Assembly: GCA_963668425.1 (NCBI GenBank)
Contig: OY764332.1
Coordinates: forward strand, 595,896 to 659,895
Origin: Minisyncoccota bacterium
Lineage (GTDB): Bacteria > Patescibacteriota > Minisyncoccia > Phycocordibacterales > JABAAK01
Direction: 5' to 3'
DNA: 64,000 bases
Shown: in pieces, positions 4,555 through 61,454 of the stretch
How the letters are laid out: every line of letters starts with the position of its first letter
Position numbering within the stretch: the stretch's first letter is position 1
The notes under the pieces: generated by a model
Database searches by the model: none
Told to the model about the DNA's origin: nothing
The model's input: the letters and a program-made list of their open reading frames with translations, nothing else
Program-made: the position numbers and the translations under genes

Positions 4555-4666
4555 GTTTTATTTTGTGTACATTATATGTATCTTAATGGGCAGGATGTGT
4601 ATTATTTCTTTGTTTAGTGCTAATTCTATGGTACAATTGCTTTTGTTTCATTTTAATGAATACAGC

Positions 4667-6067
4667 ATGAAGACAAATATACCAAAAACAGTACACTTTG
4701 GCAAAGTTGTGGCAACAGTTGGTCCTGCATCTGAGTCAGAAGAGGGCATTGCGGCACTTGTTGAGGCAGGGGTGGATGTGTTTCGCCTTAACTTTTCTCA
4801 TGGTTCGCATGAGGAACAGGGGCAGCGAGTTGTGCATATACGTGACAAAGAGGAGAAATATAACAGACCAATCAGTATCATTGCTGACTTGCAGGGTCCC
4901 AAGTTGCGCATAGGGACATTTGCCGACGATGAAGGCGTTGAAGTCAAATCCGGGGCATCATTTGCGTTTCATTTGAAAGAGCGTGTTGGAGATGAGCAGG
5001 GGGTTTCGCTTATGCATCCTGAAATATTTGAGGCGGCGAAAGTCGGTATGGATATTTTGGTTGATGACGGACGATTGCAATTTCAAGTTACTGCTGTTAC
5101 TGACGAGGTGTTGGAGACATCTGTGATTACTGGTGGCAGGATAAAACAAAAGAAAGGGGTGAATATACCGACGGTGCAGTTACCGATTGGCGCGCTTACC
5201 GCGAAAGATGAGAGAGATATGGAGTTTGCACTTTCGCGAGGGGTTGATTGGGTGGCGCTTTCATTTGTGCAACGGCCAGAGGACGTGCAACAGGCACGAA
5301 AGATGGTAAATGAGGTAGATGACACAATTGGTATTATTGCAAAGATTGAAAAACCATCTGCGGTTGAGCATATTGAAGAGATTATTGCAGTAGTTGACGC
5401 GATTATGGTGGCGCGTGGTGACTTGGGTGTTGAGATACCGCCAGAAGATGTGCCGAGTATACAGAAAAAGATTATCAAGCTGTGCCGGCAGGCAGGGAAG
5501 CCCGTGATTGTTGCAACACATATGTTGGATTCAATGATTGATGCTCCTCGTCCTACTCGTGCAGAGGTGTCAGACGTTGCAAATGCTATCTATGATGGGA
5601 CTGATGCGGTAATGCTTTCCGCAGAGACAGCGGCAGGTAACTATCCGACTGAATCTGTTGAGATGATGCGGAGTATTGTGCGGCGCTCAGTTACTGATTC
5701 TGAGTTTTTTACTGCAGAAAAAGAAATAGATTTTGCCGCGCTTCGTTGTGACACTGACTCTGTTATTGTTGCTGCGCAAGACGTCATCACAAATGAAAGT
5801 CCGACTGTGATTATTGTTAACGACTCTATTGACGGACTTTCATTTGATAGCGTTATGTGCTATGCGCGGGAGCGGTGTCGACATCCTTTGGTTGTGCTAA
5901 CAGAGGATCAGCGACTTGCGCGTCGTCTTACCTTGGCGTGGGGTGTTTCTCCAGTGTATATTCCTGGTGCTGTTATGCAGGGAGATGATGGCATAGAACC
6001 TGCTATTAGGAAACGTCTTGGTATACCTGATGCTGTGAAGGTTGCCATGCTATGGGCAAAGATATAG
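4667..6067 (+). CDS. pyk: Pyruvate kinase
   Basis: Start moved to internal ATG (MKTNIPKTVHFGKVVATVGP…); motifs VFRLNFSHG, IIAKIEKP, MVARGDLGVEIP, ATHMLDSM; about 466 aa. Confidence 0.9.
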   Translation: MKTNIPKTVHFGKVVATVGPASESEEGIAALVEAGVDVFRLNFSHGSHEEQGQRVVHIRDKEEKYNRPISIIADLQGPKLRIGTFADDEGVEVKSGASFAFHLKERVGDEQGVSLMHPEIFEAAKVGMDILVDDGRLQFQVTAVTDEVLETSVITGGRIKQKKGVNIPTVQLPIGALTAKDERDMEFALSRGVDWVALSFVQRPEDVQQARKMVNEVDDTIGIIAKIEKPSAVEHIEEIIAVVDAIMVARGDLGVEIPPEDVPSIQKKIIKLCRQAGKPVIVATHMLDSMIDAPRPTRAEVSDVANAIYDGTDAVMLSAETAAGNYPTESVEMMRSIVRRSVTDSEFFTAEKEIDFAALRCDTDSVIVAAQDVITNESPTVIIVNDSIDGLSFDSVMCYARERCRHPLVVLTEDQRLARRLTLAWGVSPVYIPGAVMQGDDGIEPAIRKRLGIPDAVKVAMLWAKI

Positions 6068-6220: not shown

Positions 6221-6889
6221 ATGATGCTTCCTGATTTTTCAAAAAATTTTGCAAATCAACCATCGCCCACACCGTCTAATGTCCCTGGGTCTACTATGTC
6301 TGCTGATGTTAAAGGTGCTGTGCAACGGGAGAAGATGATGCCACAGGAGGATCGACCTGTTAAACAGATAGATATTAGATACATACTGGCGGTGTTATTG
6401 CTTACATTTGCCATTATTAGCGTCGGTGGCATGTTTGGTTTTAATGCGTATCTGGATAGAGAGATCGTTGCTATTGAGAGTGGTATTGATGCATTGGAGG
6501 AAACTATAAAAATAAATGATATCCTTGATCTTGCCACATTTAATAAACAGATAGGAACGTTACAAGACCTTACTATTTCTCGTGGAGGGTACTCATTGTT
6601 ACTCACTGAAGCATCAAAGCTGGTCATACCTGGTGTGCATTACAGCTCTGTCTCCATAGCAACAAGTGACGACGGGTACACCGTCGTTGTAAAAGGGGTT
6701 GCCGGTTCACTTGCCCGGTATCATCAACAAATACAGCAAGTTGAGGCGGCTGAAGGACTGTTGGCAGATGGTAATTTTGATGGGTACTCATTGCAGCATA
6801 GTGAAAGTGGCGGTACTACAGTACTATTCACTGTAAGCTTCCTTGTTGAAGCAGCAGAAGTTGGTGAAACTCTTAATAATGTATCGTAG
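6221..6889 (+). CDS. Type IV pilus assembly protein, PilN-like (bitopic)
   Basis: 222 aa, cytoplasmic N-term, single TM (ILAVLLLTFAIISVGG), periplasmic domain; first of three small bitopic ORFs directly upstream of pilB. Confidence 0.35.
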   Translation: MMLPDFSKNFANQPSPTPSNVPGSTMSADVKGAVQREKMMPQEDRPVKQIDIRYILAVLLLTFAIISVGGMFGFNAYLDREIVAIESGIDALEETIKINDILDLATFNKQIGTLQDLTISRGGYSLLLTEASKLVIPGVHYSSVSIATSDDGYTVVVKGVAGSLARYHQQIQQVEAAEGLLADGNFDGYSLQHSESGGTTVLFTVSFLVEAAEVGETLNNVS

Positions 6890-6895
6890 CATCAT

Positions 6896-7462
6896 ATGAA
6901 AAACGGTTTTTTATTTTCAGTGGTTTTTATTGCTATTGCTGTCGGGCTTTATTCACAGATCATAAAACCATGGCTTGGTGATGCTCTTACAAAATATAAT
7001 CAGATTGAAGATTTGCGATCGGTGTTTGCGGAGGGGCAAAATTTGCAGGTACGTCGTGATGCATTGCGATCTGAATTGAATACTGTTTCAGTACCCCGAC
7101 AAAATTTGATAAAAAATGCAGTCCCTGAGTATTCACCCGGCAATGTTATTTTGTTTCTTCTTGCTTTGGATTCGTTGGTAAAAGAGAGGAGTGGGTTGCC
7201 GCTTGACACGAAGTATACTGTTGGATCGGAGCGAGAAGGTGCTGAAGGGGTTGTGCTGTTGCCGATTCTATTTAATTTTGGAGAGATTTCATATGATGTT
7301 CTGCGCCAGTTTATACAAAACTTGCAACGATGGGAGCGTGGAGTGCGCATTCAGTCAATGCAGATAGGAGTGCCCGCGGATGAGGATTTGGCGGAGCGAG
7401 GTTTTGTTCAGGCATCTATTTCTATTGAAGCTCTGTTTTCTTCAGTATCTGACACCTTATAA
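6896..7462 (+). CDS. Type IV pilus assembly protein, PilO-like (bitopic, coiled coil)
   Basis: 188 aa, N-terminal TM then coiled-coil segment; operonic with 6221 and pilB. Confidence 0.35.
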   Translation: MKNGFLFSVVFIAIAVGLYSQIIKPWLGDALTKYNQIEDLRSVFAEGQNLQVRRDALRSELNTVSVPRQNLIKNAVPEYSPGNVILFLLALDSLVKERSGLPLDTKYTVGSEREGAEGVVLLPILFNFGEISYDVLRQFIQNLQRWERGVRIQSMQIGVPADEDLAERGFVQASISIEALFSSVSDTL

Positions 7463-11275: not shown

Positions 11276-11477
11276 TGTTGTAGTTATACACTATATTGTG
11301 TTTGTGCACACATATACACAGGGTGCTTTATGAGTATTTTTTTATGGTATTCTAATGGTAATAGGGTAAAAACTTATAGGACGTCACCCTAGGAGCAAGA
11401 GCCGCTGGTCATTCAATCAGCGGTTTTTGTATTTTTAAGATAGCAAGTAATTTATTGTATAGTAAGGGTGGAGGAAT

Positions 11478-11548
11478 TGCCGGGTCGTCTAATGGTAGGA
11501 CGCTTGGTTCTGGCCCAAGTAATCTAGGTTCGAGTCCTAGCCCGGCAG
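11478..11548 (+). tRNA. tRNA-Gln (anticodon CUG)
   Basis: Cloverleaf by eye: U1:A72 acceptor pair typical of bacterial tRNA-Gln, anticodon stem CTTGG/CCAAG with loop TTCTGGC, T-arm GGTTCGAGTCC; CCA not encoded. Confidence 0.8.
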
Positions 11549-11637
11549 CTTACCTCAAACATTTGCAAAATAGTGCTAACAAGGACACAAAATGAGAAAA
11601 AGGTCAACGGTGTTGTTTTTTGCAGGAAAGTTGTATA

Positions 11638-11829
11638 ATGGGTGTAAAGAAGGAGGTGAGACACGCTAGTGATACATGCGATGGTAATTTTGATTGGTTC
11701 AGTATCTATCCCTTTTGTAATAAGGTTGTTGGTGGTGCAGATGCAAAGAGTGAAGAAGAGGAGGCAGTTGAAAAAGAGGTTGGAAAGGATACGGATAATC
11801 AGTTCAGTGTAATTTGGTTGTTCCAGTAG
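11638..11829 (+). CDS. Small acidic hypothetical protein (or non-coding transcript) with its own terminator
   Basis: about 63-aa ORF preceded by TATAAT at 11625-11630 and GGAGG-like SD; followed by hairpin terminator 11827-11864. Confidence 0.2.
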   Translation: MGVKKEVRHASDTCDGNFDWFSIYPFCNKVVGGADAKSEEEEAVEKEVGKDTDNQFSVIWLFQ

Positions 11830-11864
11830 CCCGGTACTAATAAGAAGTCCGGGCTACTCTTTTT
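11827..11864 (+). terminator. Rho-independent terminator (TAGCCCGG…CCGGGCTA + T-run)
   Basis: 8-bp GC-rich stem, 14-nt loop, TCTTTTT tail. Confidence 0.55.
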
Positions 11865-11869
11865 ATAAT

Positions 11870-11978
11870 GAGTGCTCAGGAGAGGAATCTCACTTGACGG
11901 TGCCAGAACCATTGAAAAAATGTCTGCGGGGCGCAGTATACATTTTTTCAATGGTTCTCGGCGCTCCGCTATCGCTCC
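11870..11978. repeat. 109-bp 'X' repeat copy A (starts with tRNA-Leu 3'-end core GAGTGCTCAGGAGAGGA; contains 19-bp-stem hairpin)
   Basis: Near-identical copies at 14126-14234 and 14476-14584; internal inverted repeat AGAACCATTGAAAAAATGT…ACATTTTTTCAATGGTTCT around CTGCGGGGCGCAG. Confidence 0.8.
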
Positions 11979-12106
11979 ACAGACAACACCTCGCCCGTTC
12001 AAAAATAAGATGGGCGTGCATACGCACCACCGTTTTATTTTTTCACTCTCTGGCTCGGTATGTCTGTTTCGCTTCGTTTTCCCACCTTTGTGTATACTAT
12101 ACGTAC

Positions 12107-12979
12107 ATGACAGTTAGCACCATAGAAAAAATTGATTTGTTCAATCAGGAGACCAAATCTAAGGTAAAAGCTGATGTTATTCTCGGAGATTGTCTTGATG
12201 TCTTAAAAAAGATGCCAGATGATTCTATTGACTTTGTTGTTACTTCACCCCCCTATGCAGATCAAAGAAAAAGTACCTATGGCGGAATTCATCCTAATGA
12301 ATATGTTGAATGGTTTTTACCGATCACGGCGGAACTCTTGCGGGTTTTGAATCCGAAAGGAACATTTGTCTTAAATATCAAAGAAAAAGTAGCAAATGGA
12401 GAGCGCCACACCTATGTTATGGAAATGATTATTGCAATGAGAGAACAGGGGTGGTTGTGGACAGAAGAATTTATTTGGCACAAAAAGAACTGTTTCCCGG
12501 GAAAATGGCCGAACCGTTTCCGTGATTCATGGGAACGACTCCTGCAGTTTAATAAATCAAAAAGTTTTAATATGTATCAGGATGAAGTGCGGGTACCTAT
12601 GGGTGACTGGGCAAAGACACGTTTAAAAAATCTTAGTGAAACAGACAAGAAAAGAGACAATTCAAAGGTCGGCAGCGGTTTTGGAAAAAATGTTTCTCAA
12701 TGGGTTGGTCGCGAGTTAGCGTATCCGACTAACGTATTAACGATAGCAACAGAAACTTCAAACAAAAAGCATAGTGCCGTTTTTCCTAAAGAATTACCGA
12801 GTTGGTTCATAAAATTATTTACTCAACCCGAAGATGTTGTATTAGATCCATTTTTGGGTTCTGGCACCACGTCAGTCGCCGCATTTCAGATTGATCGTAA
12901 CTCAATAGGAATTGAAATTCAAGAGGAGTATTGTCAGTTAGCGATTGATAATATAAATAAACAGAGGGAGCAGGCATGA
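12107..12979 (+). CDS. DNA methyltransferase, beta-class N6A/N4C (type II R-M)
   Basis: 290 aa from internal ATG (the listed ORF start at 11894 is an artefact of the upstream repeat); motif IV 'VVTSPPYAD' N-terminal, motif I 'DPFLGSGTT' C-terminal (beta-class order). Confidence 0.85.
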   Translation: MTVSTIEKIDLFNQETKSKVKADVILGDCLDVLKKMPDDSIDFVVTSPPYADQRKSTYGGIHPNEYVEWFLPITAELLRVLNPKGTFVLNIKEKVANGERHTYVMEMIIAMREQGWLWTEEFIWHKKNCFPGKWPNRFRDSWERLLQFNKSKSFNMYQDEVRVPMGDWAKTRLKNLSETDKKRDNSKVGSGFGKNVSQWVGRELAYPTNVLTIATETSNKKHSAVFPKELPSWFIKLFTQPEDVVLDPFLGSGTTSVAAFQIDRNSIGIEIQEEYCQLAIDNINKQREQA

Positions 12980-13737
12980 AAAAACTAAACTACAGAAAAC
13001 TAAACACCTTTATTGCATCAGATGTAATAAAACCCTTTTATGAAATGCGACTTGAACGACTTGAATCTGCAAAGTTGTCTGATATTTCAAAACAAAAAAA
13101 TCCATACCTCTTCAAAGCGAAGAATATTGAAACTGCCGGAGATCTAGCGAAAGGTATCCTTAACGCTTTTTTGTCATCACAGGAAGAAACAATGTTCGGT
13201 GACCTTATGGAGCGCCTTGCTGTCCATGTTTGTCACGAAGTTTTTGGCGGCAAAAAAGCAAAGGAAGGAAAATATAGGAGTGTCGATTTAATATTTGAAC
13301 GTGATAAAAAGATATATGTTGTTGGAATCAAATCCGGACCAAATTGGGGAAACTCTGATCAAGTGAGTATCCTCAGACGAAATTTAAAAACTGCCAAAAG
13401 CATGCTTCGCGCAAAAGTGGGAAAAAAGGAAATAGTATCTGTAAACGGATGTATGTATGGGCGTGACAATAAACCGCACAAAGTAAGCAAGAAAGATTCA
13501 GGCCTTAGTTATTATAAAATCTGCGGGCAGCCGTTCTGGGAACTCATTTCTGGAGATGATCAATTATACAAAAAGATTATTCAGCCACTCAGTAAAGAGG
13601 CAAAGAAAAAAGATGAGATCTTTAAAGATTTGTATTCCAAAAAAGTAAACGAAATGACGAAAGATACCGTTAATTGTTTTTATACTAACAATGATCTTGA
13701 TTGGGATAAAATTATTGAGTATGTTTCAAAAAAATAA
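12976..13737 (+). CDS. Putative cognate type II restriction endonuclease (uncharacterised family)
   Basis: 253 aa, start overlaps methyltransferase stop (ATGA coupling); size and position typical of a REase; no unambiguous PD-(D/E)XK motif assignable by eye. Confidence 0.45.
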   Translation: MKKLNYRKLNTFIASDVIKPFYEMRLERLESAKLSDISKQKNPYLFKAKNIETAGDLAKGILNAFLSSQEETMFGDLMERLAVHVCHEVFGGKKAKEGKYRSVDLIFERDKKIYVVGIKSGPNWGNSDQVSILRRNLKTAKSMLRAKVGKKEIVSVNGCMYGRDNKPHKVSKKDSGLSYYKICGQPFWELISGDDQLYKKIIQPLSKEAKKKDEIFKDLYSKKVNEMTKDTVNCFYTNNDLDWDKIIEYVSKK

Positions 13738-13740
13738 AGA

Positions 13741-14125
13741 CACCTTTGTTTTTTGATAAGTTGGTATATTATTCTCAGGCGATATTATCCGCGAGGAATA
13801 CACCCACAAGAAACAGAAACTCCTTGCTGAAAAAGCGGACACCAGAGAAAACCTGCGGAAGGACTTGGACGGTGCTGTTGCGTGGTTTGAACCCGCACTT
13901 TCCATACTTAACCAAGCAACTGCAATACCAAACGCTCTGAAAGATGCCGAACCTGCCGTTTTGGCGGATTGTTTCAGAGAGGTCGGTTTTGAACCCCACG
14001 CTTCGCGCCGAAACGATTGTATTCCAGCCACAGTGTGGTTGGAAAGCCCTGTATGACGGGCTGCGAAACAGCCCGTCTAAAAAGCCACATACGAGCGATA
14101 GCGAGTGTGTATCATTTGTTTCCTT
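13741..14125. other. GC-richer structured non-coding stretch (candidate ncRNA, unidentified)
   Basis: No convincing ORF; local GC visibly higher than surroundings; several strong hairpins, e.g. GACGGGCTG-CGAAA-CAGCCCGTC at about 14056-14078. Confidence 0.25.
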
Positions 14126-14475
14126 GAGTGCTCAGGAGAGGAATCTCACTTGACGGTGCCAGAACCGTTGAAAAAATGTCTGCGGGGCGCAGTATACATT
14201 TTTCCAACGGTTCTCGGCGCTCCGCTATCGCTCCGCTGACTCCATCCGTCAAGTTTTTGCTTCGCAAAAACCAATCGGCTATCGCCGACAGTTCTTGTTG
14301 TTTGTAAAGAGTATACTTGTTGTGTTTTGTGGTGGTGCTTGGTGTTTGGTGCTCAGGAGAGGACTTGAACCTCCATGGGATTGCTCCCACACGCCCCTCA
14401 AGCGTGCGCGTCTGCCCGTGCCGACAATCTTTGATTGTCGCTGATTATTAGTCGCCACCTTGGTGGCGGAGTCAT
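14126..14475. repeat. 350-bp tandem unit 1 (X repeat + spacer + pseudo-tRNA-Leu 3' half + two hairpins)
   Basis: Unit repeated head-to-tail at 14476-14825 with only a few substitutions; contains copy of tRNA-Leu positions about 22-3' end (14349-14412). Confidence 0.85.
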
Positions 14476-14825
14476 GAGTGCTCAGGAGAGGAATCTCACT
14501 TGACGGTGCCAGAACCGTTGAAAAAATGTCTGCGGGGCGCAGTATACATTTTTCCAACGGTTCTCGGCGCTCCGCTATCGCTCCGCTGACTCCATCCGTC
14601 AAGTTTTTGCTTCGCAAAAACCAATCGGCTATCGCCGACAGTTCTTGTTGTTTGTAAAGAGTATGCTTGTTGTGTTTTGTGGTGGTACTTGGTGTTTGGT
14701 GCTCAGGAGAGGACTTGAACCTCCATGGGATTGCTCCCACACGCCCCTCAAGCGTGCGCGTCTACCCGTGCCGACAATCTCTGATTGTCGCTGATTATTA
14801 GTCGCCACCTTGGTGGCGGAGTCAT
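14476..14825. repeat. 350-bp tandem unit 2
   Basis: Same as unit 1; pseudo-tRNA fragment at about 14699-14762; followed immediately by intact tRNA-Leu. Confidence 0.85.
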
Positions 14826-14828
14826 GAG

Positions 14829-14912
14829 TGCTCAGGAGAGGACTTGAACCTCCATGGGATTGCTCCCACACGCCCCTCAAGCGTGCGCGTCTACCAGTTC
14901 CGCCACCTGAGC
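14829..14912 (-). tRNA. tRNA-Leu (anticodon GAG), type II with long variable arm
   Basis: Reverse complement folds: acceptor GCTCAGG/CCTGAGC, anticodon stem CACGC/GCGTG with loop TTGAGGG, variable arm about 15 nt, T-arm GGTTCAAGTCC; CCA not encoded. Confidence 0.8.
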
Positions 14913-15154
14913 TGTATAGGTAGAGTATACCGCATTTGTCACTTCTGTATGGTATAGTATCAATAATGAGTTCGTTTTCTCGTGGCATCTTATTTTTGCG
15001 ATACCGATTTGTGTACTGTTTTGCGCGATTGTGTGGCAAGAATGTTGCTGATGCGACTGTTTCTGCGCGATGTGTATTGGCACATACAATCACCAAAGTA
15101 ATCAATACACGAACACAATCGTTGGCTAAACATATATGCACCAACTACTAATGA

Positions 15155-16357
15155 GTGAGTATGCAGGCAAGCCGTGAACAAGTACAAGCGTTATTTGAGC
15201 GAAACACCATTGCTGATGTCATTCCATCAAAGGAGGAATTTGAAAAACGATTAGTATCTGATAAGCCGTTTCATATCTATCTCGGCATAGATCCGACAGC
15301 AAAGCAAGTGCATTTGGGACACATTCAGAATATTCTGTTGCTTGAGGATTTGCGTAGGATGGGAGCAAAAATCACACTTCTTTTCGGATCATTCACTGGG
15401 TTGATTGGTGATCCGACCGGTAAAGAAAAAGCACGATCACAGTTAACGCGAGAACAAGTGCGGGAGCATATGCGCTCGTGGAAACGGCAGGTGTCTCCGG
15501 TGCTTGACTTGTCACTCTTGAGTAGTGCGCGAATTAACTATAATCATCGGTGGTTTGATACGGTTTCTTTGGAGCAATTTTTAACATTATTGCGAGAGAC
15601 AACTGTGCAACAGTTACTGGAACGAGACATGTTTCAAAAACGACTTGATTCCGGCAAACCATTGTATGCACATGAGATGATGTACCCGGTTTTGCAGGGG
15701 TATGATTCAGTTGCAATGCAGGTTGACGCGGAGCTGTGCGGAACAGATCAGACCTTTAATGCGTTGATGGGGCGAACAATGACGCAGCGGCACCTCAACA
15801 AAGAGAAATTTGTGGTAACCATGGAGTTGATACAAGCCGATGGGGTGCTGATGTCCAAAAGTGCCGGTACTGGTGTGTTTGTTGATATTGAACAGGGTGG
15901 TAATCACCGCATGTTTGGTGCGGTGATGGCGTTGCCTGATGGATTTATTGATCCGTTGTTTCGCGGATGTACCCGAATACCGATGGATGAGATCGCAAAG
16001 ATGGATGTGGGCGGAGGTGTGGCAACGAGAGATGCGAAACTGCGGTTGGCGCGGGAAATTGTCGGTATGTTTTGGGGGGTTGAGCAAGCAAAGGTAGCCG
16101 AGGAGAGTTATATCACACAATTTCGTGAAAAATCAGCACCGGACTCTGCATTGACCATTACTGTTAGTGAGGAGGTGTTGCTACTTGACCTTGTGGTTGA
16201 GCATACCGGCATTTCTCGGTCAGAGGCAAAGCGAAGGTTTGCACAAGGAGCAGTTTCCATTGATACTAAAAAAATAACAGACATCACTCATGCACTTACA
16301 AAGAGTAGTGCCGAGCGGGTGTTACGTGTTGGTCGGAAGGTGTTCCGAGTGCAGTAG
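15155..16357 (+). CDS. tyrS: Tyrosyl-tRNA synthetase
   Basis: 400 aa; HIGH-type motif 'AKQVHLGH', KMSKS-type 'LMSKSAGT', C-terminal S4 RNA-binding domain; GTG or nearby ATG start. Confidence 0.85.
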   Translation: MSMQASREQVQALFERNTIADVIPSKEEFEKRLVSDKPFHIYLGIDPTAKQVHLGHIQNILLLEDLRRMGAKITLLFGSFTGLIGDPTGKEKARSQLTREQVREHMRSWKRQVSPVLDLSLLSSARINYNHRWFDTVSLEQFLTLLRETTVQQLLERDMFQKRLDSGKPLYAHEMMYPVLQGYDSVAMQVDAELCGTDQTFNALMGRTMTQRHLNKEKFVVTMELIQADGVLMSKSAGTGVFVDIEQGGNHRMFGAVMALPDGFIDPLFRGCTRIPMDEIAKMDVGGGVATRDAKLRLAREIVGMFWGVEQAKVAEESYITQFREKSAPDSALTITVSEEVLLLDLVVEHTGISRSEAKRRFAQGAVSIDTKKITDITHALTKSSAERVLRVGRKVFRVQ

Positions 16358-16373
16358 GGTATACTACTGGTAA

Positions 16374-17213
16374 ATGCATACTAAAAAAGTAGTAAAAAGA
16401 AATGGAGTTGTGGTAGATTTTGATAAGAAAATCCTTGAGCGCTCATTGCTTCGCTCCGGTGCGGAGCGAGACCTTGCACGTGATATTACGATTGACATAG
16501 AGCAATTGATTCGGGATGGTGACTCAACAGATATGGTGTATAAAAAGGCGTTTGAAATGCTATATGAGCGGGCACGATCAGTGGCAATGCGGTACTCATT
16601 GAAAAAAGCGTTATTTGGTTTGGGTCCGACAGGGTTTCCGTTTGAAAAATTTGTTGCTGAACTATTTCAGCGGAAAGGGTATGCTACGCAAACTAATGTG
16701 CATTTACGTGGTGGCTGTATTGCTCATGAAGTTGATGTATTAGCAATCAGATCAGAGCGGGTTGCGATGGAAATCAAATTTCATAATGATATGCATATTC
16801 GGTCAGATGTAAAATCAGTGCTGTATGTGAAAGCGCGGTTTGATGATCTGCTGGGGCGGACTGTCTCAACATTTTCATTTCGAAAAAAGGGATCAGTTGA
16901 CAAGTGTATTTTAGTTACTAATACAAAGTTTACTAAAAATGCACTCGCCTACGCTAAATGTGCCGGTGTGTCCTTGCTCGGTTGGGGGTATCCGTTTCGT
17001 GATAATCTGCAATCCCTCATACAAAAAGTTGACGCACATCCAGTTACCTGTATTCCATCGCTTTCACCCTCACACATGCGTGCTTTGTTTGCTGAAGGAG
17101 TTGTAACGTGTAGAGGGTTGCTTGAACGGGATGATTTGCTACGCTCACTGCCGAATACTGATACTATTGTCTCTGAGGCAAAGATGCTGTGTCGACCAGA
17201 TGCTCGGCGATAA
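16374..17213 (+). CDS. ATP-cone domain protein fused to Mrr-like restriction-endonuclease (PD-(D/E)XK) fold
   Basis: 279 aa; N-terminal NrdR-like ATP-cone (VVKRNGVVVDFDKKIL), then 'FEKFVAELFQRKGY…HEVDVLAI…MEIKF' D…ExK signature. Confidence 0.5.
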   Translation: MHTKKVVKRNGVVVDFDKKILERSLLRSGAERDLARDITIDIEQLIRDGDSTDMVYKKAFEMLYERARSVAMRYSLKKALFGLGPTGFPFEKFVAELFQRKGYATQTNVHLRGGCIAHEVDVLAIRSERVAMEIKFHNDMHIRSDVKSVLYVKARFDDLLGRTVSTFSFRKKGSVDKCILVTNTKFTKNALAYAKCAGVSLLGWGYPFRDNLQSLIQKVDAHPVTCIPSLSPSHMRALFAEGVVTCRGLLERDDLLRSLPNTDTIVSEAKMLCRPDARR

Positions 17214-17223
17214 TTTTTATACT

Positions 17224-17994
17224 ATGAATATATACGCAACACGTAAAAGAAATATTTTTGATCCAGCAAGTGACGTGCCATTTGCGCTCTCACGTAGCAA
17301 GATAGATCTGTTTTTTCAATGTCCGCGATGCTTTTATCTGGACAGACGGCTAGGTGTCGCGCCGCCGCGTGGATTTCCATTTAATCTGAATGATGCGGTT
17401 GATTTGTTATTCAAAAAAGAGTTTGACACCTATCGGGTAAAAAAAGAACCTCACCCGCTGGTTGCTGCCGCTGGTTTATCACTAGTGCCGATGCAGCATG
17501 CACAACTGGAAGTATGGCGCAATCCGTTTGAGGGGGTGCGATATCATCATCAGCCATCAAACTTTATCGTGTTTGGTGGGGTAGATGATGTGTGGAGTGA
17601 CACGGACGGAGTGGTTACCGTTGTTGACTATAAGGCAACCAGCAAAGACAAGGAGGTAACTATAGATGCGCCGTGGCAGGATGCTTATAAGCGGCAATTG
17701 GAAGTGTACCAATGGTTGTTTCGTAACAACGGCTTTACTGTTTCTGATACAGGATATTTTGTATACACAAATGGAGATAGATCAGCTGAAGGTTTTCATG
17801 ACACCTTGCGATTCAAGACAAAGCTCATTCCATATGATGGTTCTGACAGTTGGATTGAAGATGTGTTGATGCGGGCAAAGGCAACTTTGATGAGTGATGC
17901 AATACCAGAGGCGGGAAGGTGGTGTGATTTTTGTCCCTACCGAGAAGCAGCAGGGAAGTCGTTTCGGGCGCATGCAGAAGAAACCACCTCATGA
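17224..17994 (+). CDS. Cas4-like/RecB-family PD-(D/E)XK nuclease with four-Cys cluster
   Basis: 257 aa from internal ATG; 'VVDYKATSK' (DxK), QxxxY-like 'EVYQWL'; Cys N-terminal 'QCPRC' and C-terminal 'RWCDFCPY' as in Fe-S Cas4/AddB nucleases. Confidence 0.55.
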   Translation: MNIYATRKRNIFDPASDVPFALSRSKIDLFFQCPRCFYLDRRLGVAPPRGFPFNLNDAVDLLFKKEFDTYRVKKEPHPLVAAAGLSLVPMQHAQLEVWRNPFEGVRYHHQPSNFIVFGGVDDVWSDTDGVVTVVDYKATSKDKEVTIDAPWQDAYKRQLEVYQWLFRNNGFTVSDTGYFVYTNGDRSAEGFHDTLRFKTKLIPYDGSDSWIEDVLMRAKATLMSDAIPEAGRWCDFCPYREAAGKSFRAHAEETTS

Positions 17995-24797: not shown

Positions 24798-25226
24798 ATG
24801 GTATATACTGTATGTATGAAGAAAGACACACATCCTGAGATGCATCCTGTGCTATTCCGTGATACAAGTGCGGGGGTTGATTTTATTGGTTTTTCAACGG
24901 CAATGTCTGAGGAAAAAGAGACGGTTGATGGTGTTGAGCGTTTTGTGATTCCTGTTGAAATTAGTTCTGCCAGCCATCCTTTTTATACCGGTGAGGAAAA
25001 TATTATTGATACTGCTGGGCGGGTTGAGAAGTTTAAGGCACGTGCAGAGAAGAAGGCGGCATCTGGGAAGCGCCAACGGGAGATGCAAGCCACGAAAGAT
25101 CGTGCTGCGAGAAATGTGTTGCTATCTGAGCAGAAACAGGATGCTTCTTTGGAAAAGAGAGCGACAAAAAAGACAACAAAAAAGGTGGCAAAGAGTGTGG
25201 CAAAGAAGACGGAAGCGCATCAGTAG
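24798..25226 (+). CDS. rpmE: 50S ribosomal protein L31 (type B, no zinc Cys) with Lys-rich C-terminal extension
   Basis: 142 aa; 'MKKDTHPE…HPFYTGEE…GRVEKF' matches L31 core. Confidence 0.75.
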   Translation: MVYTVCMKKDTHPEMHPVLFRDTSAGVDFIGFSTAMSEEKETVDGVERFVIPVEISSASHPFYTGEENIIDTAGRVEKFKARAEKKAASGKRQREMQATKDRAARNVLLSEQKQDASLEKRATKKTTKKVAKSVAKKTEAHQ

Positions 25227-25251
25227 TAATGATGCTTTTGCCGGTGTTTAT

Positions 25252-28261
<3,010 letters not shown>

Positions 28262-29611: not shown

Positions 29612-30430
29612 ATGAAGACGCCGCTTAGGTATCCGGGAGGGAAGGCGAAGTTTTTTAATTATTTTGTTGCACTTTTGGAAAGTAAGAATGTGCAAAATCC
29701 AATATTTGTTGAGCCATATTGCGGTGGGGCAGGAGCTGCAATCAAACTTTTGTTGACTGGTAAGGTGAAAGCGATCTATTTAAATGATGCTGATAGGAGT
29801 ATTTATGCGTTTTGGCATGCTGTTCTTAATGATTGTGATCGATTGGTGAGGAAGATGTATAGGACACCAGTAACGCTTGATACATTTGACAAGCAAAAAG
29901 ATGTGCAAGCAAGGAAAGGCGCAGTAAGTTTATTTGATTTAGGTTTTTCAACCTTGTTTCTAAACCGAACTGCGTTTTCTGGTGTTATTTCTGGAGGTCC
30001 GATTGGTGGGAGAAAACAAACTAGTAAATATAGGTTGGATTGCAGATTTAATAAAAAAAATATTGCAGAAAGGATTAGAGATATAGCAAGGCATAAAGGG
30101 AGTATTGAAATTTTTAACAAGGATGCGGAGGATTTTTTGAGGTTGTCGAGAATAGAAAAATTGCCGAAAGAGAAAACTATCTTTTATATGGATCCGCCAT
30201 ACTTTGAAAAAGGTGTTCTCTTATATCAAAATAATTACCTTTTGGAGGATCATAAAAGGATTGAAAGATTTTTGAGGAATTATGATAAAAATGTCTATGT
30301 TTCTTATGATGATTGTAAGGAGATAAGAAAGATTTATGCTGTGTGGAACAAGAACAGGGTTAAGGTTCCACATTGTGCCGGGAGGTTTAAGATGGGTCAA
30401 GAAGTCATTTTGTGCAAGAGTGGTGTATAG
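29612..30430 (+). CDS. dam: Dam-family (D12 class) DNA N6-adenine methyltransferase
   Basis: 272 aa; 'RYPGGK', 'EPYCGGAGAA' (FxGxG-like), 'DPPY' catalytic motif. Confidence 0.8.
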   Translation: MKTPLRYPGGKAKFFNYFVALLESKNVQNPIFVEPYCGGAGAAIKLLLTGKVKAIYLNDADRSIYAFWHAVLNDCDRLVRKMYRTPVTLDTFDKQKDVQARKGAVSLFDLGFSTLFLNRTAFSGVISGGPIGGRKQTSKYRLDCRFNKKNIAERIRDIARHKGSIEIFNKDAEDFLRLSRIEKLPKEKTIFYMDPPYFEKGVLLYQNNYLLEDHKRIERFLRNYDKNVYVSYDDCKEIRKIYAVWNKNRVKVPHCAGRFKMGQEVILCKSGV

Positions 30431-30513: not shown

Positions 30514-31419
30514 GTGGGTATGTGTTACACTGTCTTTGAATTGCATATGCAAAAAGAAGAACGAGAAAGGAGGGTACAGGAACTTGAAGCGGCGATGGGG
30601 TTACCTGATTTTTGGGAGGATAAGGAGGAGGCGCAACGCATGGTGCGTGAATATAATGAGTTAAAAGAGGTCGGATCGGTGCGGGAATTTTTTCCGGCGG
30701 TTCTACATATCATTGCGGGAGTTGGTGGAGATGATGCGGAAGATTTTGCCCGTATGCTTGCCGCTATGTATCAGCGATATGCTGAGCATAAGGGGTTTGT
30801 TGTGTACGAGGTGGATCGGCATGAGACATCGCGGGGTGGGTATAAAAATATTAGTATTGAGATTGCAGATAAGCAGGCATATGAGCTATTGAAACATGAA
30901 ACCGGTGTACATCGGCTTGTTCGTATTTCTCCGTTTAATGCAAAGAAGCAACGACATACTTCATTTGCATTGGTGGATGTTACTCCCAAATTGCCGCCAT
31001 TACAGGAAGTAGATATTCCGGAGCGTGATATTGAAATTGACTTTACAAACTCAAGTGGCCCGGGTGGGCAGAATGTAAACAAGCGAGAAACAGCAGTGCG
31101 AGTTAAGCATATTCCGTCTGGTATTACTGTTCGGGTTGAGCGAGAGCGATCGCAGGCACAGAACAAAGAGGTTGCGCTGGAGATATTGCGTGGAAAACTT
31201 TTCGTGTTAATGAAACAGAAACGTGTGGAAACATTGCGTGATCTTTCGTTTGACAAAACCACTGATATTGAGTGGGGGAATCAAATTCGCTCGTATGTGT
31301 TGCACCCGTATAAAATGGTGAAAGATTTGCGTGTCAATTATGAAGAACGTAATCCAGAAGAGGTTTTTGATGGTAAATTGGATGGCTTTATAGAGGCATT
31401 GAAAGGGTATACGGAATAG
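30514..31419 (+). CDS. prfB: Peptide chain release factor 2 (N-terminal domain strongly reduced)
   Basis: 301 aa; 'SPF' tripeptide (RISPFNAKK), 'GGQ' (SSGPGGQNVNKRE); GTG (30514) or ATG (30520) start. Confidence 0.85.
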   Translation: MGMCYTVFELHMQKEERERRVQELEAAMGLPDFWEDKEEAQRMVREYNELKEVGSVREFFPAVLHIIAGVGGDDAEDFARMLAAMYQRYAEHKGFVVYEVDRHETSRGGYKNISIEIADKQAYELLKHETGVHRLVRISPFNAKKQRHTSFALVDVTPKLPPLQEVDIPERDIEIDFTNSSGPGGQNVNKRETAVRVKHIPSGITVRVERERSQAQNKEVALEILRGKLFVLMKQKRVETLRDLSFDKTTDIEWGNQIRSYVLHPYKMVKDLRVNYEERNPEEVFDGKLDGFIEALKGYTE

Positions 31420-53927: not shown

Positions 53928-54002
53928 GGCCCTATCGTCTAGCGGCTAGGACACAGCCCTCTCACGGCTGAGACCGGGGTTCAATTCCCCGTAGGGTCAC
54001 CA
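53928..54002 (+). tRNA. tRNA-Glu (anticodon CUC), CCA encoded
   Basis: Acceptor GGCCCTA/TAGGGTC, anticodon stem CAGCC/GGCTG loop CTCTCAC, T-arm GGGGTTCAATTCCCC, 3' ACCA. Confidence 0.8.
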
Positions 54003-54115
54003 ATCAGCCAATATACCTCACTCTGTGTTTTTGTATTCGCCTCCGGTCTCAGCCGATCACGGCTGCCAGTAGTCAGGTTTTTGTCAGAGCCAAAAACACG
54101 GGGGTTTGATTCCAC

Positions 54116-54192
54116 GGTACAGCGTTAGAACTGAAGAAACATTTTGAAAATACCTCGTCCGTTCCACCCTCCTCTTAACTTAACCCCAACCC
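54116..54192. repeat. Left terminal inverted repeat of island
   Basis: Reverse complement aligns with 61201-61278 (…GGTTAAGTTAAGAGGAGGGTGGAACGGACGAGGTATTTTCAAAATGTTTCTTCAGTTCTAACGCTGTACC). Confidence 0.8.
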
Positions 54193-54296
54193 TTATGCTC
54201 GGTGCGACTGTTTCGTTTCGTTTTCCCATCTTCGTTCTTTTGCTCTGCTCTGTAAAAGTCCGAGGGAGGGAATGCTTATGTTAAATCACCTTTTCC

Positions 54297-55082
54297 TTAA
54301 ATTCTCTTCCGTGTTCCTCCTATTCTCCTCCTTGCAATATTTACATACTCACTGTCCCTCTCTATTCCCACCCATTGACATCCACATTGTTTAGCAACAC
54401 ACGCCGTCGTCCCGCTTCCCAAAAACGGATCTAAAACAATATCTTCCTTGTTTGCACTCGCAAGAATAATCCGCCGCAGCATTTCCTCAGGTTTTTGTGT
54501 TGGATGTAGCGCCTTTCCATCGTCGCCCCGTAACCGTTCATCCCCTTGCACAAGCGGCAATTCCCACACATCACGCATTTGCTTTACTTTTCCATTTTTC
54601 TGTCTTTCAGGGTTAATTTCTTTCACTTTTTCGTAATTAAAAGTCCACCCCTTCCCTTTGACTGCCCATATAATAAATTCTGTGGAATGTGTAAAAACTC
54701 GTCTCGTCATGTTCGGCATAGCATTTGTCTTATGCCAGGTAATTACATTGTTTATCTTGAATCCAATCTGTTTTATTGCAGTCATGACCTCGCTAATATT
54801 GTGATAACTGCAGGAGATATAAAATGAACCAGTGTCTTTTAATACTCGATTACAAGCACCGATCCATTGACGGGTAAATTGCACATATTCTGGTACGGTC
54901 ATTTTATCCCAGTGTGCGTCAACCATATACCAATCCCCGCCTGTTTTGTTTCCCTCCCACTTCAAACCATTGCCAGAAAGGTTGTACGGCGGATCCGCAA
55001 AAATTAAATCAATTGTTTGTTCATTAATTTTTTTATTCAAAATCTCTACACAATCACCATTGTAAATAATATTTGTTTTCAT
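54297..55082 (-). CDS. DNA methyltransferase, beta-class (DPPY then FxGxG), M2 of M-R-M operon
   Basis: 261 aa; 'IFADPPYNLSG' N-terminal, 'LDPFLGSGTTACVA' C-terminal; 4-nt overlap with upstream REase. Confidence 0.85.
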   Translation of the reverse strand: MKTNIIYNGDCVEILNKKINEQTIDLIFADPPYNLSGNGLKWEGNKTGGDWYMVDAHWDKMTVPEYVQFTRQWIGACNRVLKDTGSFYISCSYHNISEVMTAIKQIGFKINNVITWHKTNAMPNMTRRVFTHSTEFIIWAVKGKGWTFNYEKVKEINPERQKNGKVKQMRDVWELPLVQGDERLRGDDGKALHPTQKPEEMLRRIILASANKEDIVLDPFLGSGTTACVAKQCGCQWVGIERDSEYVNIARRRIGGTRKRI

Positions 55083-56908: not shown

Positions 56909-56909
56909 G

Positions 56910-58127: not shown

Positions 58128-58166
58128 ATGTATTTAGTATATCTCACAAATGGGAAATCCTTATTT

Positions 58167-60960: not shown

Positions 60961-60967
60961 ACCTATT

Positions 60968-61147
60968 ACTTTAATAATGCCAAATGCCTACCTTTCTCAA
61001 TAGCCAGCCAGTTAACGGATAAGCAATAAAAACTGCTATAAGCGCTGGTTTTACTGGTTCATTGAAAATATTCCAAAGCAAGGCAAAAATAACAATGGTG
61101 ATTACTTTATTTACCACGCTTCCTAATGTTGAGTGAAAGTTTTTCAT
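60968..61147 (-). CDS. Unannotated 59-aa two-TM small membrane protein heading the Gabija-like operon
   Basis: Translation by hand of the minus strand: MKNFHSTLGSVVNKVITIVIFALLWNIFNEPVKPALIAVFIAYPLTGWLLRKVGIWHY; stop 8 nt before gajA-like start; below the ORF-track size cut-off. Confidence 0.3.
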
Positions 61148-61200
61148 AAAAACATTTTACCATTATTTGGTTAAGGTGTTTACGGTGCGGTCCGAGCGTA

Positions 61201-61278
61201 GGGGTTGGGTTTAAGTTAAGAGGAAGGTGGAACGGATGAGGTGTTTTCAAAATGTTTCTTCGGCTCTAACGCTGTACC
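61201..61278. repeat. Right terminal inverted repeat of island
   Basis: See TIR-L; abuts DR2 at 61280. Confidence 0.8.
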
Positions 61279-61380
61279 ATAAGGTCACCAATCAGCCAGC
61301 AGATACCGTATTTCATGCCTCTGTATTTATCTCTGATTTTAGAAATTTAGGCATTTCTCTGGTGGTACACTATAAACATC

Positions 61381-61454
61381 GGGCGATTAGCTCAGTTGGC
61401 TAGAGCGCTCCCTTGACGTGGGAGAGGTCACAGGTTCAAGTCCTGTATCGCCCA
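61381..61454 (+). tRNA. tRNA-Val (anticodon GAC)
   Basis: Acceptor GGGCGAT/ATCGCCC, D-arm GCTCAGTTGGCTAGAGC, anticodon stem CTCCC/GGGAG loop TTGACGT, T-arm GGTTCAAGTCC. Confidence 0.8.

Follow-up and report, generated by a model that had tools for sequence, protein, structure and literature searches.

The locus described here lies in a 64,000-nt stretch of a Patescibacteria genome (hereafter the window) and consists of an intact tRNA-Leu(GAG) gene, a restriction-modification (R-M) gene pair, three copies of a repeat (X) and two 350-bp tandem units, punctuated by four copies of a short sequence derived from the tRNA 3' end (Table 1). All the elements that an earlier note had described from the sequence were recovered in place, and none of them is expected by chance.

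Table 1. Features of the tRNA-Leu(GAG) locus, in coordinates of the window.
Feature	Position	Strand	Context	Evidence
Core O, copy 1	11869–11886		Junction J1: chromosomal flank – O – X; left boundary of R-M island	Exact 18-bp match
X, copy 1	11887–11978		54-nt hairpin at 11905–11958	Direct- and inverted-repeat families
Module P, conserved left-end non-coding	11975–12088	+	Between X and cargo	blastn, alignment
N4/N6 DNA methyltransferase	12107–12979	+		Pfam N6_N4_Mtase, E 1.2e-44
Type II restriction endonuclease, EcoO109I/PmeII family	12976–13737	+		Pfam RE_EcoO109I, E 1.9e-70
Large serine recombinase (LSR) pseudogene, 3' remnant	13772–14057	+	About the last 95 codons	phmmer, tblastn
Integrase-gene end region (P-type arm)	14087–14124	+	Hairpin ACATAC...GTGTGT at 14087–14110, then 14-nt T-rich stretch at 14111–14124 abutting the core	
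Unit U1	14125–14474		Core O, X copy 2, spacer, pseudo-tRNA-Leu, hairpins 1 and 2	
Core O, copy 2	14125–14142		Junction J2: integrase end – O – X, attP-like; start of U1	
X, copy 2	14143–14234		In U1	
Spacer, U1	14235–14345		Minus-strand terminator-like hairpin inside	
Pseudo-tRNA-Leu, U1	14349–14426	-		
Hairpin 1, U1	14422–14440			
Hairpin 2, U1	14453–14468			
Unit U2	14475–14824		Core O, X copy 3, spacer, pseudo-tRNA-Leu, hairpins 1 and 2	
Core O, copy 3	14475–14492		Junction J3: hairpin 2 – O – X, attL-like; start of U2	
X, copy 3	14493–14584		In U2	
Pseudo-tRNA-Leu, U2	14699–14776	-		ARAGORN
Hairpin 1, U2	14772–14790			
Hairpin 2, U2	14803–14818			
Core O, copy 4	14825–14842		Junction J4: hairpin 2 – O – tRNA, attB-like; overlaps 3' end of intact tRNA-Leu(GAG)	
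Intact tRNA-Leu(GAG)	14829–14912	-		ARAGORN; Rfam tRNA, 50 bits

The 18-bp core O (TGAGTGCTCAGGAGAGGA) is made up of the last 14 nt of tRNA-Leu(GAG) plus 4 nt and occurs in four exact copies. A 17-nt version of it (GAGTGCTCAGGAGAGGA) had previously been counted six times; four of these occurrences are exact (11870, 14126, 14476 and 14826), the remaining two (14347 and 14697) being inexact, with two mismatches, and no match was obtained in 100 shuffles of the sequence. Within the core, TGAG-TG-CTCA forms an inverted repeat around a central TG dinucleotide. Copy 1, preceded by the last base of the upstream open reading frame's terminator hairpin, places a displaced tRNA 3' end 2.96 kb from the tRNA-Leu gene. 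The junction type of each core follows from the arms that flank it on either side, and the combinations seen are attP-, attL- and attB-like, with no canonical attR among the junctions of the locus. A far-end copy of a tRNA 3' end is common to serine- and tyrosine-type elements and does not, therefore, discriminate between them.

The cargo is an adjacent methyltransferase and restriction endonuclease pair with family-level domain matches and a 4-bp gene overlap, as befits a Type II R-M system, and homologs of the endonuclease are named in their sources as PmeII family type II restriction endonucleases. A 1.66-kb block encompassing both genes (12084–13739) is 86% identical, with sharp ends, in three other loci (L001, L018 and L019). 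The open reading frame at 11894–12979 had been called artefactually extended, which is supported: methyltransferase homology in other genomes begins at 12084–12089, and the TTG start of the frame falls within X. Upstream of the cargo, module P occurs once in the window. It includes a terminator-like hairpin and its T-run, and extends to a promoter-like sequence of the methyltransferase gene (TGTGTATACT). It was aligned by blastn at 80% identity to positions 7115–7228 of locus L013 and at 73% to positions 2061–2166 of L012 and 3475–3365 of L014; module P and the integrase-gene end region together show 68–80% identity to their counterparts in related loci.

The stretch downstream of the endonuclease gene had been described as GC-rich and non-coding, in a locus where no integrase remains. 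The latter statement was mistaken: this stretch is the frameshifted end of an LSR gene. A phmmer search against 1.84 billion representatives returned 11 matches to it (best E 7e-20), and tblastn with P0007, an intact 512-aa homolog bearing Resolvase, Recombinase and Zn_ribbon_recom domains, aligned residues 375–445 to 13772–13984 (frame +2) and residues 448–469 to 13992–14057 (frame +3), with E 6e-16, placing a +1 frameshift between 13984 and 13992. Neither Resolvase, Recombinase and Zn_ribbon domains nor a Phage_integrase-family domain was detected in any open reading frame of at least 150 aa in the 64-kb window. A frameshifted C-terminal stub lacking the LSR domains denotes a dead derivative rather than a working LSR element: roughly 370 codons are missing from the start of the gene, and the island is no longer self-mobile. 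The homology of the remnant also implies that the recombinase was of the serine type, and not of the tyrosine type usually assumed for tRNA islands. As in LSR elements, the remnant lies at one end of the element and reads towards the core at 14125, with about 17 nt separating the ACATAC...GTGTGT hairpin from the tRNA-derived bases.

Repeat X (110 nt) follows three of the cores, and a direct-repeat search delimited it together with the core at 11868–11984, 14124–14240 and 14474–14590. The flanking of the methyltransferase-endonuclease pair by X repeats was thus borne out, the last of these intervals adding a third copy. Copies 2 and 3 are identical, and copy 1 differs from them at three positions in the first 110 nt; the repeat flanking the R-M block measures 110–128 nt at 97% identity. 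The dominant feature of X is a 54-nt hairpin whose outer stem has 19 bp (fold z-score about -5.5 to -6.1), and two of the three differences between copies 1 and 2 make up a compensatory A-T to G-C pair in this stem (11911/11952). By its position and by analogy with L012 and L013, copy 1 would correspond to the left-end arm (P'-type) of the island. An integron cassette array, recognizable by intI, attI and attC sites with R''/R' boxes (RYYYAAC / GTTRRRY), was rejected, there being no such integrase gene and the arms of the X hairpin (AGAACCGTTGAAAAAATGT / ACATTTTTCCAACGGTTCT) carrying no attC boxes at their ends. Nor does the locus conform to strict insertion of an R-M unit with long target duplication: the interval between the repeats also holds module P and the integrase remnant, and a lone X copy was found in none of the relatives.

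The two head-to-tail 350-bp units were recovered by TRF (14125–14842, period 350, 2.1 copies, 98% matches), and both hairpins were found in each. U1 and U2 differ by four substitutions (14315/14665, 14337/14687, 14414/14764 and 14431/14781; 98.9% identity). The pseudo-tRNA they contain is longer than the copy from about position 22 that had been reported: it spans 78 nt and reaches tRNA position 8, and its last 68 nt, from tRNA position 18 onwards, are identical to the gene. CCA follows each pseudo-tRNA copy and CTC follows the intact gene, and the copy in U2 scores 27.1 bits, under the Rfam tRNA gathering score of 29. In a terminator-like scan, hairpin 1 with its T-rich tail scores as a plus-strand terminator, and G-U changes in hairpin 2 preserve its pairing on the plus strand alone (paired cells 100%, versus 86% on the minus strand, across six sequences and with shuffle controls not significant). 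Both hairpins are probably plus-strand terminators, which would block island transcription antisense into tRNA-Leu and tyrS.

Comparison with relatives revealed that the slot between tRNA-Gln and tRNA-Leu is hypervariable, with five different contents in five relatives. In L001, L002, L020 and L021 the tRNA-Leu gene is identical and tyrS is next to it. Three of these (L001, L020 and L021) have a whole or partial pseudo-tRNA and hairpins 1 and 2 beside tRNA-Leu, the pseudo-tRNA of L001 breaking off precisely where the anticodon stem meets the loop; of these features, L002 has hairpin 2 only. While L002, L020 and L021 keep hairpin 2 and tRNA-Leu, other genes fill the slot, and none of them showed an exact empty site that shares this left flank. 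X, the extra cores and the LSR remnant are absent from all four. The pseudo-tRNA and hairpins are thus older chromosomal features, since relatives without X have them. The earlier note's reading, a locus shaped by site-specific integration and by duplication of att sites at the tRNA-Leu 3' end, is supported, but the recent events that gave rise to X and the R-M unit did not produce the pseudo-tRNA and hairpins. The 350-bp duplication alone, at 99% identity, is recent.

Homologous LSR genes, intact or decayed, were also found in other Patescibacteria. They lie downstream of R-M or other cargo and run into the 3' end of a tRNA gene (tRNA-Asn, -Ser, -Ile or -Glu). In L012, an intact LSR gene reads into an antisense tRNA-Asn gene, with two methyltransferases and a Tsp45I endonuclease upstream. 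L013, also at tRNA-Asn, has an LSR remnant and AhpC cargo, as well as a second copy of the integrase end followed by GGCTC and a left-end arm, forming an attP-like joint. R-M genes accompany an LSR remnant at tRNA-Ser in L014, and a frameshifted LSR gene lies at tRNA-Ile in L015. The same R-M cassette as here (86% nucleotide identity) is found in L019, together with an 83-nt integrase-end remnant, two tandem units and an intact tRNA-Glu gene; these units, each beginning with a 25-nt tRNA-Glu 3' core, are more diverged than the 350-bp units, and the attP-, attL- and attB-like series is present there as well. An alignable hairpin and about 17 nt precede the tRNA 3' end in L014 (Ser), L019 (Glu), L012 and L013 (Asn) and L015 (Ile), the integrase-end hairpin of L013 showing compensatory changes.

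We consider it likely that the locus is a decayed LSR-type integrative island at the 3' end of tRNA-Leu(GAG), in a genome related to Kaiserbacteria/Paceibacterota. The order of parts between 11869 and 14124 matches that of the related elements: core, X, module P, cargo, integrase gene towards the tRNA, terminator hairpin, about 17 nt and tRNA 3' end. Because the LSR remnant reads towards the core as its homologs do, this interval can be understood as an LSR island whose integrase is dead but whose two conserved ends survive. An LSR element would have integrated through a crossover inside the 18-bp core, so that core and X came to lie away from the tRNA and the integrase end next to it. The integrase-end/core/X junction at 14125, in attP form, may then stem from another insertion or recombination at a core-X site; the resulting tandem array would be of a kind known from other integrative elements, for which arrays at restored cores are well established (PMC7192596). 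Sister-chromosome exchange between this attP-like core and the attB-like core at the tRNA would have duplicated the 350 bp, the new hairpin-2/core/X joint at 14475 having the attL form expected from attP x attB. Unequal exchange between two cores is most simply what the 350-bp duplication would represent; homologous exchange on 18 bp would yield the same product. The R-M genes would have outlasted their deleted neighbors, plausibly since R-M loss kills the cell.

Some observations count against an LSR island. No intact Leu-type element combining LSR, X and core was found, and the ends of the tRNA-Asn LSR elements share only 5 nt, not 18. Simple attP x attB chemistry leaves the adjacency of X and spacer (~14235) unexplained. 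The pseudo-tRNA is identical to the live gene at 68 of 68 positions, yet its orthologs in L020 and L021 are decayed or interrupted, and such preservation would need gene conversion or selection. With classical LSRs such as phiC31 and Bxb1, attP is not known to recombine with attL or attR, and accretion in tandem would therefore need a permissive, Ccr-like enzyme or homologous recombination.

Recombination without any site-specific recombinase, which we regard as doubtful, would have brought in the R-M genes through insertion accompanied by a long target duplication, or through a Campbell-type homologous crossover at a core-X sequence already present, and the second unit through slippage or unequal homologous exchange on the 18-bp repeat. 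R-M genes that lack a working mobility gene and lie between long direct repeats (about 100 bp) have been described as a class (PMC2853133), a 110–128 nt repeat at 97% identity suffices for RecA-dependent exchange, and the 1.66-kb block stops at the same sharp boundaries in each of four contexts. Nevertheless, the block between the repeats also carries both conserved ends of LSR elements (module P and the integrase 3' end), the repeat starts precisely where related integrases act, at the tRNA 3' end, and recurrence of the attP/attL/attB-like series at tRNA-Glu in L019 is unlikely to result from random slippage. For the 350-bp duplication itself, a recombinase-free origin and the LSR island lead to identical products. 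An unlikely origin is the successive accretion of tyrosine-integrase elements with a tRNA-Leu 3' identity block, each displacing a partial tRNA, whose integrases were later deleted. Direct-orientation partial tRNAs beside an intact tRNA are the textbook signature of this process (PMC7192596); the 78-nt pseudo-tRNA exceeds what an LSR site needs and could be an old displaced fragment, and the break in L001 coincides with a common tyrosine-integrase crossover site. Accretion of this kind may thus have given rise to the pseudo-tRNA alone. For the locus as a whole, it is at odds with the absence of Phage_integrase domains from open reading frames of at least 150 aa in the window, with a sole recombinase trace that is serine-type and placed exactly where the integrase of related elements sits, and with a pseudo-tRNA lying between the live tRNA and the island rather than at the far end of the island.

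That the two units are an assembly artefact, by repeat expansion or placement of strain variants in tandem at a true single-unit locus, is very unlikely, even if assemblers can misjudge the copy number of nearly identical units between identical 18-bp cores. The inter-unit substitutions are spread over 117 bp, one of them in the hairpin 1 loop; the contig (696,550 bp) is close in size to the complete chromosome of L002 (661,662 bp), suggesting a long-read or complete assembly; and L019, an independent genome, has the same two-unit layout. It would surprise us most if the units were functional, either as non-autonomous mini-elements or landing pads that keep an attB free next to the tRNA, or as genes whose RNA would be antisense to the 3' 78 nt of tRNA-Leu, starting at a TATACT-like box and ending at hairpins 1 and 2. 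The recurrence of the architecture at tRNA-Glu in L019, the TATACT box 30 nt upstream of the antisense pseudo-tRNA in U1, the plus-strand terminator features of both hairpins and the unusually good preservation of the pseudo-tRNA speak for a function, whereas the box reads TATGCT in U2, the orthologous pseudo-tRNAs of L020 and L021 have degenerated, covariation does not exceed its controls, and no Rfam family was matched by the units. We hold it quite improbable that the locus represents an undescribed Patescibacteria family of LSR islands acting at the last bases of many tRNAs (Leu, Asn, Ser, Ile and Glu) and ferrying defense genes, with recombination building integron-like tandem arrays of small att-bearing units next to the tRNA and with the 350-bp units serving as landing pads or antisense-RNA genes.

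A decayed LSR island turns an apparently integrase-less repeat puzzle into a readable mobile-island fossil, and illustrates how seemingly non-coding filler can hide a decisive gene stub. Although decayed and ordinary in kind, the locus points to little-described tRNA-targeting islands in Patescibacteria, where LSR elements at extreme tRNA 3' ends carry R-M and other cargo. Little is known of how these ultra-small genomes acquire defense genes; genome engineering, for its part, has a practical interest in serine integrases with defined tRNA targets.

In the SCC elements of staphylococci, Ccr large serine recombinases insert at the extreme 3' end of the housekeeping gene rlmH, which is kept active. 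Direct repeats of 15–18 bp mark every SCC element boundary, and SCCmec and ccr-less pseudo-SCC elements form tandem composite arrays. SCC cargo often comprises R-M and other defense genes (PMC11470126). The locus resembles SCC in its serine recombinase at the 3' end of a conserved gene, its boundary repeats, recombinase-less cassettes and R-M cargo, the comparison with Ccr being one of shared Pfam domains in the intact relative P0007 only; it differs in having a tRNA gene as target instead of rlmH, a Patescibacteria host and a recombinase reduced to a dead stub. At one end of an Islander/TIGER-type island lies an intact tRNA, whose 3' end recurs as direct repeats at the element boundaries (PMC7192596, PMC4383910). 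Like them, the locus stacks several elements or remnants in tandem at one tRNA, in a slot that is hypervariable between relatives (PMC7192596, PMC4383910), but theirs are almost always tyrosine integrases with an identity block that starts at the anticodon or T loop and extends to the 3' end, whereas here the trace is of a serine recombinase and the shared core is confined to the last tRNA bases and 4 nt beyond. Furuta, Abe and Kobayashi (2010; PMC2853133) described R-M genes that sit, together with an integrase, in a tRNA gene between long direct repeats, and also R-M insertion with long target duplication. A Type II pair between long direct repeats overlapping tRNA sequence, with the same block in different flanks across genomes, recalls such mobile R-M units (PMC2853133); the repeats here, however, are the element's own arm and att core instead of a duplicated target, and the integrase is serine-type and truncated. 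The tycheposons of Prochlorococcus belong to another phylum, use mostly tyrosine recombinases, with a large serine recombinase in 27 of 937 elements, and often carry replication genes (10.1101/2020.12.28.424599). By description, they are nonetheless alike in being cargo elements at tRNA genes of streamlined genomes, with only partial tRNAs between neighbors and with fragmented integrases and extra partial tRNAs left as fossils (10.1101/2020.12.28.424599).

The 17-nt core at the 3′ end of tRNA-Leu(GAG), which the earlier note counted six times, is present as four exact copies and two copies with two mismatches each, and is absent from shuffled sequences. The four exact copies have one extra base in common and thus define an 18-bp core, hereafter core O (TGAGTGCTCAGGAGAGGA), corresponding on the minus strand to the final 14 nt of tRNA-Leu(GAG) followed by CTCA. 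Three of these copies are followed by repeat X (110 nt), which occurs at only these three sites within the 64-kb window and contains a hairpin of 54 nt whose outer stem spans 19 bp. Three positions separate copy 1 of X from copies 2 and 3, and two of these make up a compensatory change of an A-T to a G-C pair in the stem. The 350-bp tandem repeat was likewise recovered in the assembled sequence (14125-14842, 2.05 copies), with four substitutions between its two units, and the initial description of the repeats, pseudo-tRNAs, hairpins and restriction-modification (R-M) pair was borne out by reanalysis. Coordinates of the main features are collected in the table.

Features of the tRNA-Leu(GAG) locus and of the second defence island in the window
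Feature	Position	Strand	Description
Core O, exact copies	11869, 14125, 14475, 14825		18 bp
J1	11869		Left arm chromosomal flank, right arm X; island left boundary
J2	14125		Left arm integrase end, right arm X; attP-like
J3	14475		Left arm hairpin hp2, right arm X; attL-like
J4	14825		Left arm hairpin hp2, right arm tRNA; attB-like
N4/N6 methyltransferase and EcoO109I/PmeII-family endonuclease	Between X copies 1 and 2	+	Domain matches
tRNA-Leu(GAG), intact	14829-14912	-	ARAGORN, Rfam
tRNA-Glu(CTC)	53928-54002	+	
N6_N4 methyltransferase	54297-55082		Second defence island
AlwI-family endonuclease	55079-57016		Second defence island
D12 methyltransferase	56910-58127		Second defence island
UvrD-like helicase	58167-59330		Second defence island
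OLD-family TOPRIM ATPase	59317-60960		Second defence island
tRNA-Val	61381-61456	+	

Two identities were considered for X. An integron attC site was rejected, as neither an intI gene nor the attC boxes in the hairpin arms were found. A decayed copy of tRNA-Leu was not supported: beyond the core and an ACTTGA motif past a 6-nt insertion, local alignment of X to the tRNA gave a score equalled or exceeded by 479 of 500 shuffles. An Rfam scan of 11300-15300 at E-values up to 1 returned only tRNAs and a chance miRNA match on the X hairpin. The X hairpin pattern had no match in viral contigs, and the exact pattern of the core-X junction had none in JGI metagenomes.

The region downstream of the R-M pair had been described as a GC-rich non-coding stretch, and the locus as one without a remaining integrase, a reading that has to be revised. 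The stretch contains a protein-like open frame of 98 codons (13760-14056), for which a word-indexed homology search returned no match; the full HMMER scan, covering 1.84 billion representatives, identified 11 relatives (best E-value 7e-20). One of them, P0007 (512 aa), is intact and combines Resolvase, Recombinase and Zn_ribbon_recom domains, which identifies it as a large serine recombinase (LSR). A tblastn search with P0007 gave matches in two frames: residues 375-445 at 13772-13984 (frame +2) and residues 448-469 at 13992-14057 (frame +3). The remnant thus carries a frameshift, and roughly its first 370 codons are missing. No further match to P0007 was detected in the 64 kb, and no window ORF of 150 aa or more contains a recombinase domain. 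Viral contigs yielded no match to the integrase-end motif and no relative of the intact LSR, and there is thus no sign of the element being a phage.

Contigs encoding homologues of the LSR remnant place the same element family at other tRNA genes. In L012, an intact LSR reads into a tRNA-Asn gene of antisense orientation at its 3′ end, with two methyltransferases and a Tsp45I endonuclease upstream; L013 carries a remnant and an AhpC gene adjoining tRNA-Asn, L014 an R-M pair and a remnant adjoining tRNA-Ser, and L015 a frameshifted LSR adjoining tRNA-Ile. Alignment of the integrase ends reveals a conserved order of GGCTGGAAAGCCCTCTATGAC, a hairpin with compensatory changes in L013, approximately 17 T-rich nt and the tRNA 3′ end; in the window this series occupies 14036-14124 and is followed by core O. 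At the opposite end, between X and the methyltransferase, a non-coding stretch (module P, 11975-12088) shows 73-80% identity to counterparts in L012, L013 and L014, which lie between left arm and cargo in the first two and are inverted in the third. With both conserved ends in place, 11869-14124 retains the full family order of core, left arm, module P, cargo, integrase and core, although its integrase is, judged from sequence, dead.

The counterparts of module P, about 110 nt long, belong to elements aimed at different tRNAs (L013 7115-7228, L012 2061-2166, L014 3365-3475); the module comprises a terminator-like hairpin with a T-run, followed by TTTTTTCACTCTnTGGCTCGGTnTGTCTGTTTCGCTTCGTTTTCCC, and has no Rfam match. 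A candidate pseudo-tRNA-Asn within the left arm of the Asn elements was not supported, its alignment score lying inside the shuffle range. In L012, copies of the left arm and integrase end recur inverted just upstream of the intact integrase gene (1655-2040 and 5400-5906), suggesting either an inversion or an inverted tandem insertion.

Each 350-bp unit contains a 78-nt copy of tRNA-Leu followed by two perfect hairpins, hp1 and hp2. The copy had been said to start at about tRNA position 22; its presence in each unit holds, and it extends further, to position 8, and matches the live gene at every base between position 18 and the 3′ terminus (68/68). The copy in unit 2 is called as a tRNA by ARAGORN, yet scores 27.1 bits, below the Rfam tRNA gathering score of 29, and is a pseudo-tRNA. 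Both copies are followed by an encoded CCA (14346-14348 and 14696-14698), and the live gene by CTC; the trinucleotide after the live tRNA-Leu is CCG in L001 and CAG in L002, two contigs of relatives.

Relatives were identified via the neighbouring tyrS gene (80-90% protein identity) and show synteny on both sides of the locus as far as the contigs reach, with an identical tRNA-Leu in all. In L002, hp2 immediately follows the tRNA and the slot between tRNA-Gln and tRNA-Leu holds different genes. In L001 the pseudo-tRNA is truncated, hp1 and hp2 are both present, and the R-M cassette of the window occurs together with a cas1-cas2-CRISPR locus; a search with the tRNA pattern in JGI metagenomes returned only L011, the L001 locus on a longer contig, and the pattern had no match in viral contigs. 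In L020 the pseudo-tRNA has decayed, hp1 and hp2 accompany it, and EcoRI-like methylase, GmrSD, HNH and SNF2 genes fill the slot; in L021 the pseudo-tRNA is split by two hairpin insertions and followed by hp1 and hp2. The slot is a hotspot whose contents differ in each relative and consist mostly of defence genes.

The pseudo-tRNAs of the window, L001 and L021 have the diagnostic bases CCCGTGCCG in place of CCAGTTCCG in common, and are therefore orthologous. X, extra cores and the LSR remnant are absent from L001, L002, L020 and L021; together with this orthology, the presence of pseudo-tRNA and hairpins in relatives lacking X indicates that they predate the X, R-M and integrase parts. Gene conversion is the likely cause of the 68/68 identity of the pseudo-tRNA, given its decayed orthologues. 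hp1 shows a single compensatory change, from A-T to T-A, in L021; together with the T-rich tail, hp1 is scored as a terminator on the plus strand. G-U changes preserve hp2 pairing in 100% of cells on the plus strand versus 86% on the minus strand, among six sequences and with shuffle controls that were not significant. It may be suggested, tentatively, that hp1 and hp2 halt island transcription running antisense into tRNA-Leu and tyrS.

The two insertions in the orthologous pseudo-tRNA-Leu of L021 (8024-8150) are short perfect hairpins, GCAATGCAACACGGATGTTGCGTTGC and GCAAAGTGAAATTCAATTCACTTTGC, and the pseudo-tRNA-Glu units of a further Patescibacteria contig, L019, likewise bear a hairpin insertion; the insertion of small palindromes into pseudo-tRNAs seems to recur. 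In the relative represented by L001 (1-400) and L011 (6600-8775), with 84% TyrRS identity, the R-M cassette has cas1, cas2 and a CRISPR array (at least 16 repeats) immediately upstream. The repeats terminate in TCTACTAATGTAGAT and are probably of Cas12a type; CRISPR systems are uncommon in Patescibacteria.

The four junctions at core O point to a possible history of the array. An attP-like joint within the chromosome, present also in L013, is what tandem elements yield, and tandem arrays at restored cores are well documented (PMC7192596). J2 and J4 are in direct orientation and lay 350 bp apart prior to duplication. Were they to recombine between sister chromosomes, the 350 bp would be doubled and the new joint would be exactly J3. 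Such an exchange could proceed through the integrase attP x attB reaction or through homologous recombination on the 18 bp, with the same product. In the first part of the core, TGAG-TG-CTCA forms an inverted repeat about a central dinucleotide, an arrangement often found at serine-integrase crossover sites. The adjacency of X and the chromosomal spacer (~14235) could not be derived from attP x attB reactions alone.

Random slippage might also generate tandem units, and a second, independent example at tRNA-Glu bears on this alternative. L019 contains the R-M cassette (86% nucleotide identity), an 83-nt integrase-end remnant and two tandem units of 127-129 nt, each opening with 25 nt that repeat the tRNA-Glu 3′ end, then a hairpin and a copy of the anticodon arm; the intact tRNA-Glu comes after them (array at 6787-7224). 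The order is that of the window: integrase end, core, arm and spacer, core, arm and spacer, core, tRNA. Among eight further tRNA-adjacent loci examined, only L019 has repeated cores besides the window. The same layout at two tRNA genes favours a process linked to the att core over random slippage. The left edge of the L019 island (4665-4684) bears a third copy of the spacer motif.

The R-M block (12084-13739, 1.66 kb) is conserved at 86% identity across four different contexts, with sharp ends a few bases from the start and stop codons. To its right lies the integrase in two cases, starting at codon ~375 in the window and ~457 in L019; L001 has a broken pseudo-tRNA at this place, and L018 unrelated sequence with a small minus-strand ORF and then tRNA-Gly. 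Type II R-M systems have established post-segregational killing, and on that basis the pattern fits deletions that reached up to, and not into, an addictive R-M pair (for comparison, see PMC2853133).

Elsewhere in the window, a second tRNA-flanked defence island (53928-61456) includes a Gabija-like pair, formed by the UvrD-like helicase and the OLD-family TOPRIM ATPase; tblastn with P0007 detected no integrase remnant in it. Directly downstream of tyrS (16374-17994) lie an Mrr_cat restriction-endonuclease-like gene, with a further weak ATP-cone match in the precomputed annotation of relatives, and a PD-(D/E)XK nuclease gene; since the pair is kept in L020 and L021, it is probably core genome and not island. 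Peptide-chain-release-factor domains (PCRF and RF-1) occur on two ORFs (24955-26202 and 30514-31419), between which lies an orphan D12 adenine methyltransferase (29612-30430).

As a decayed integrative island that carries R-M cargo, sits at a tRNA gene and lies in a tandem array, the window locus is known in kind (PMC7192596; PMC2853133; 10.1101/2020.12.28.424599). What may be new is a serine-recombinase family whose targets are the extreme 3′ ends of various Patescibacteria tRNA genes, and of which a non-exhaustive literature search found no published description. The window island, its integrase being a stub, does not count as a functional member of any family. SCC-type serine-recombinase cassettes insert at a housekeeping gene's 3′ end and are bounded by repeats of 15-18 bp; their composite arrays include members without a recombinase. 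It is SCC-type cassettes, with defence genes among their cargo (PMC11470126), that the window locus most resembles in its workings.
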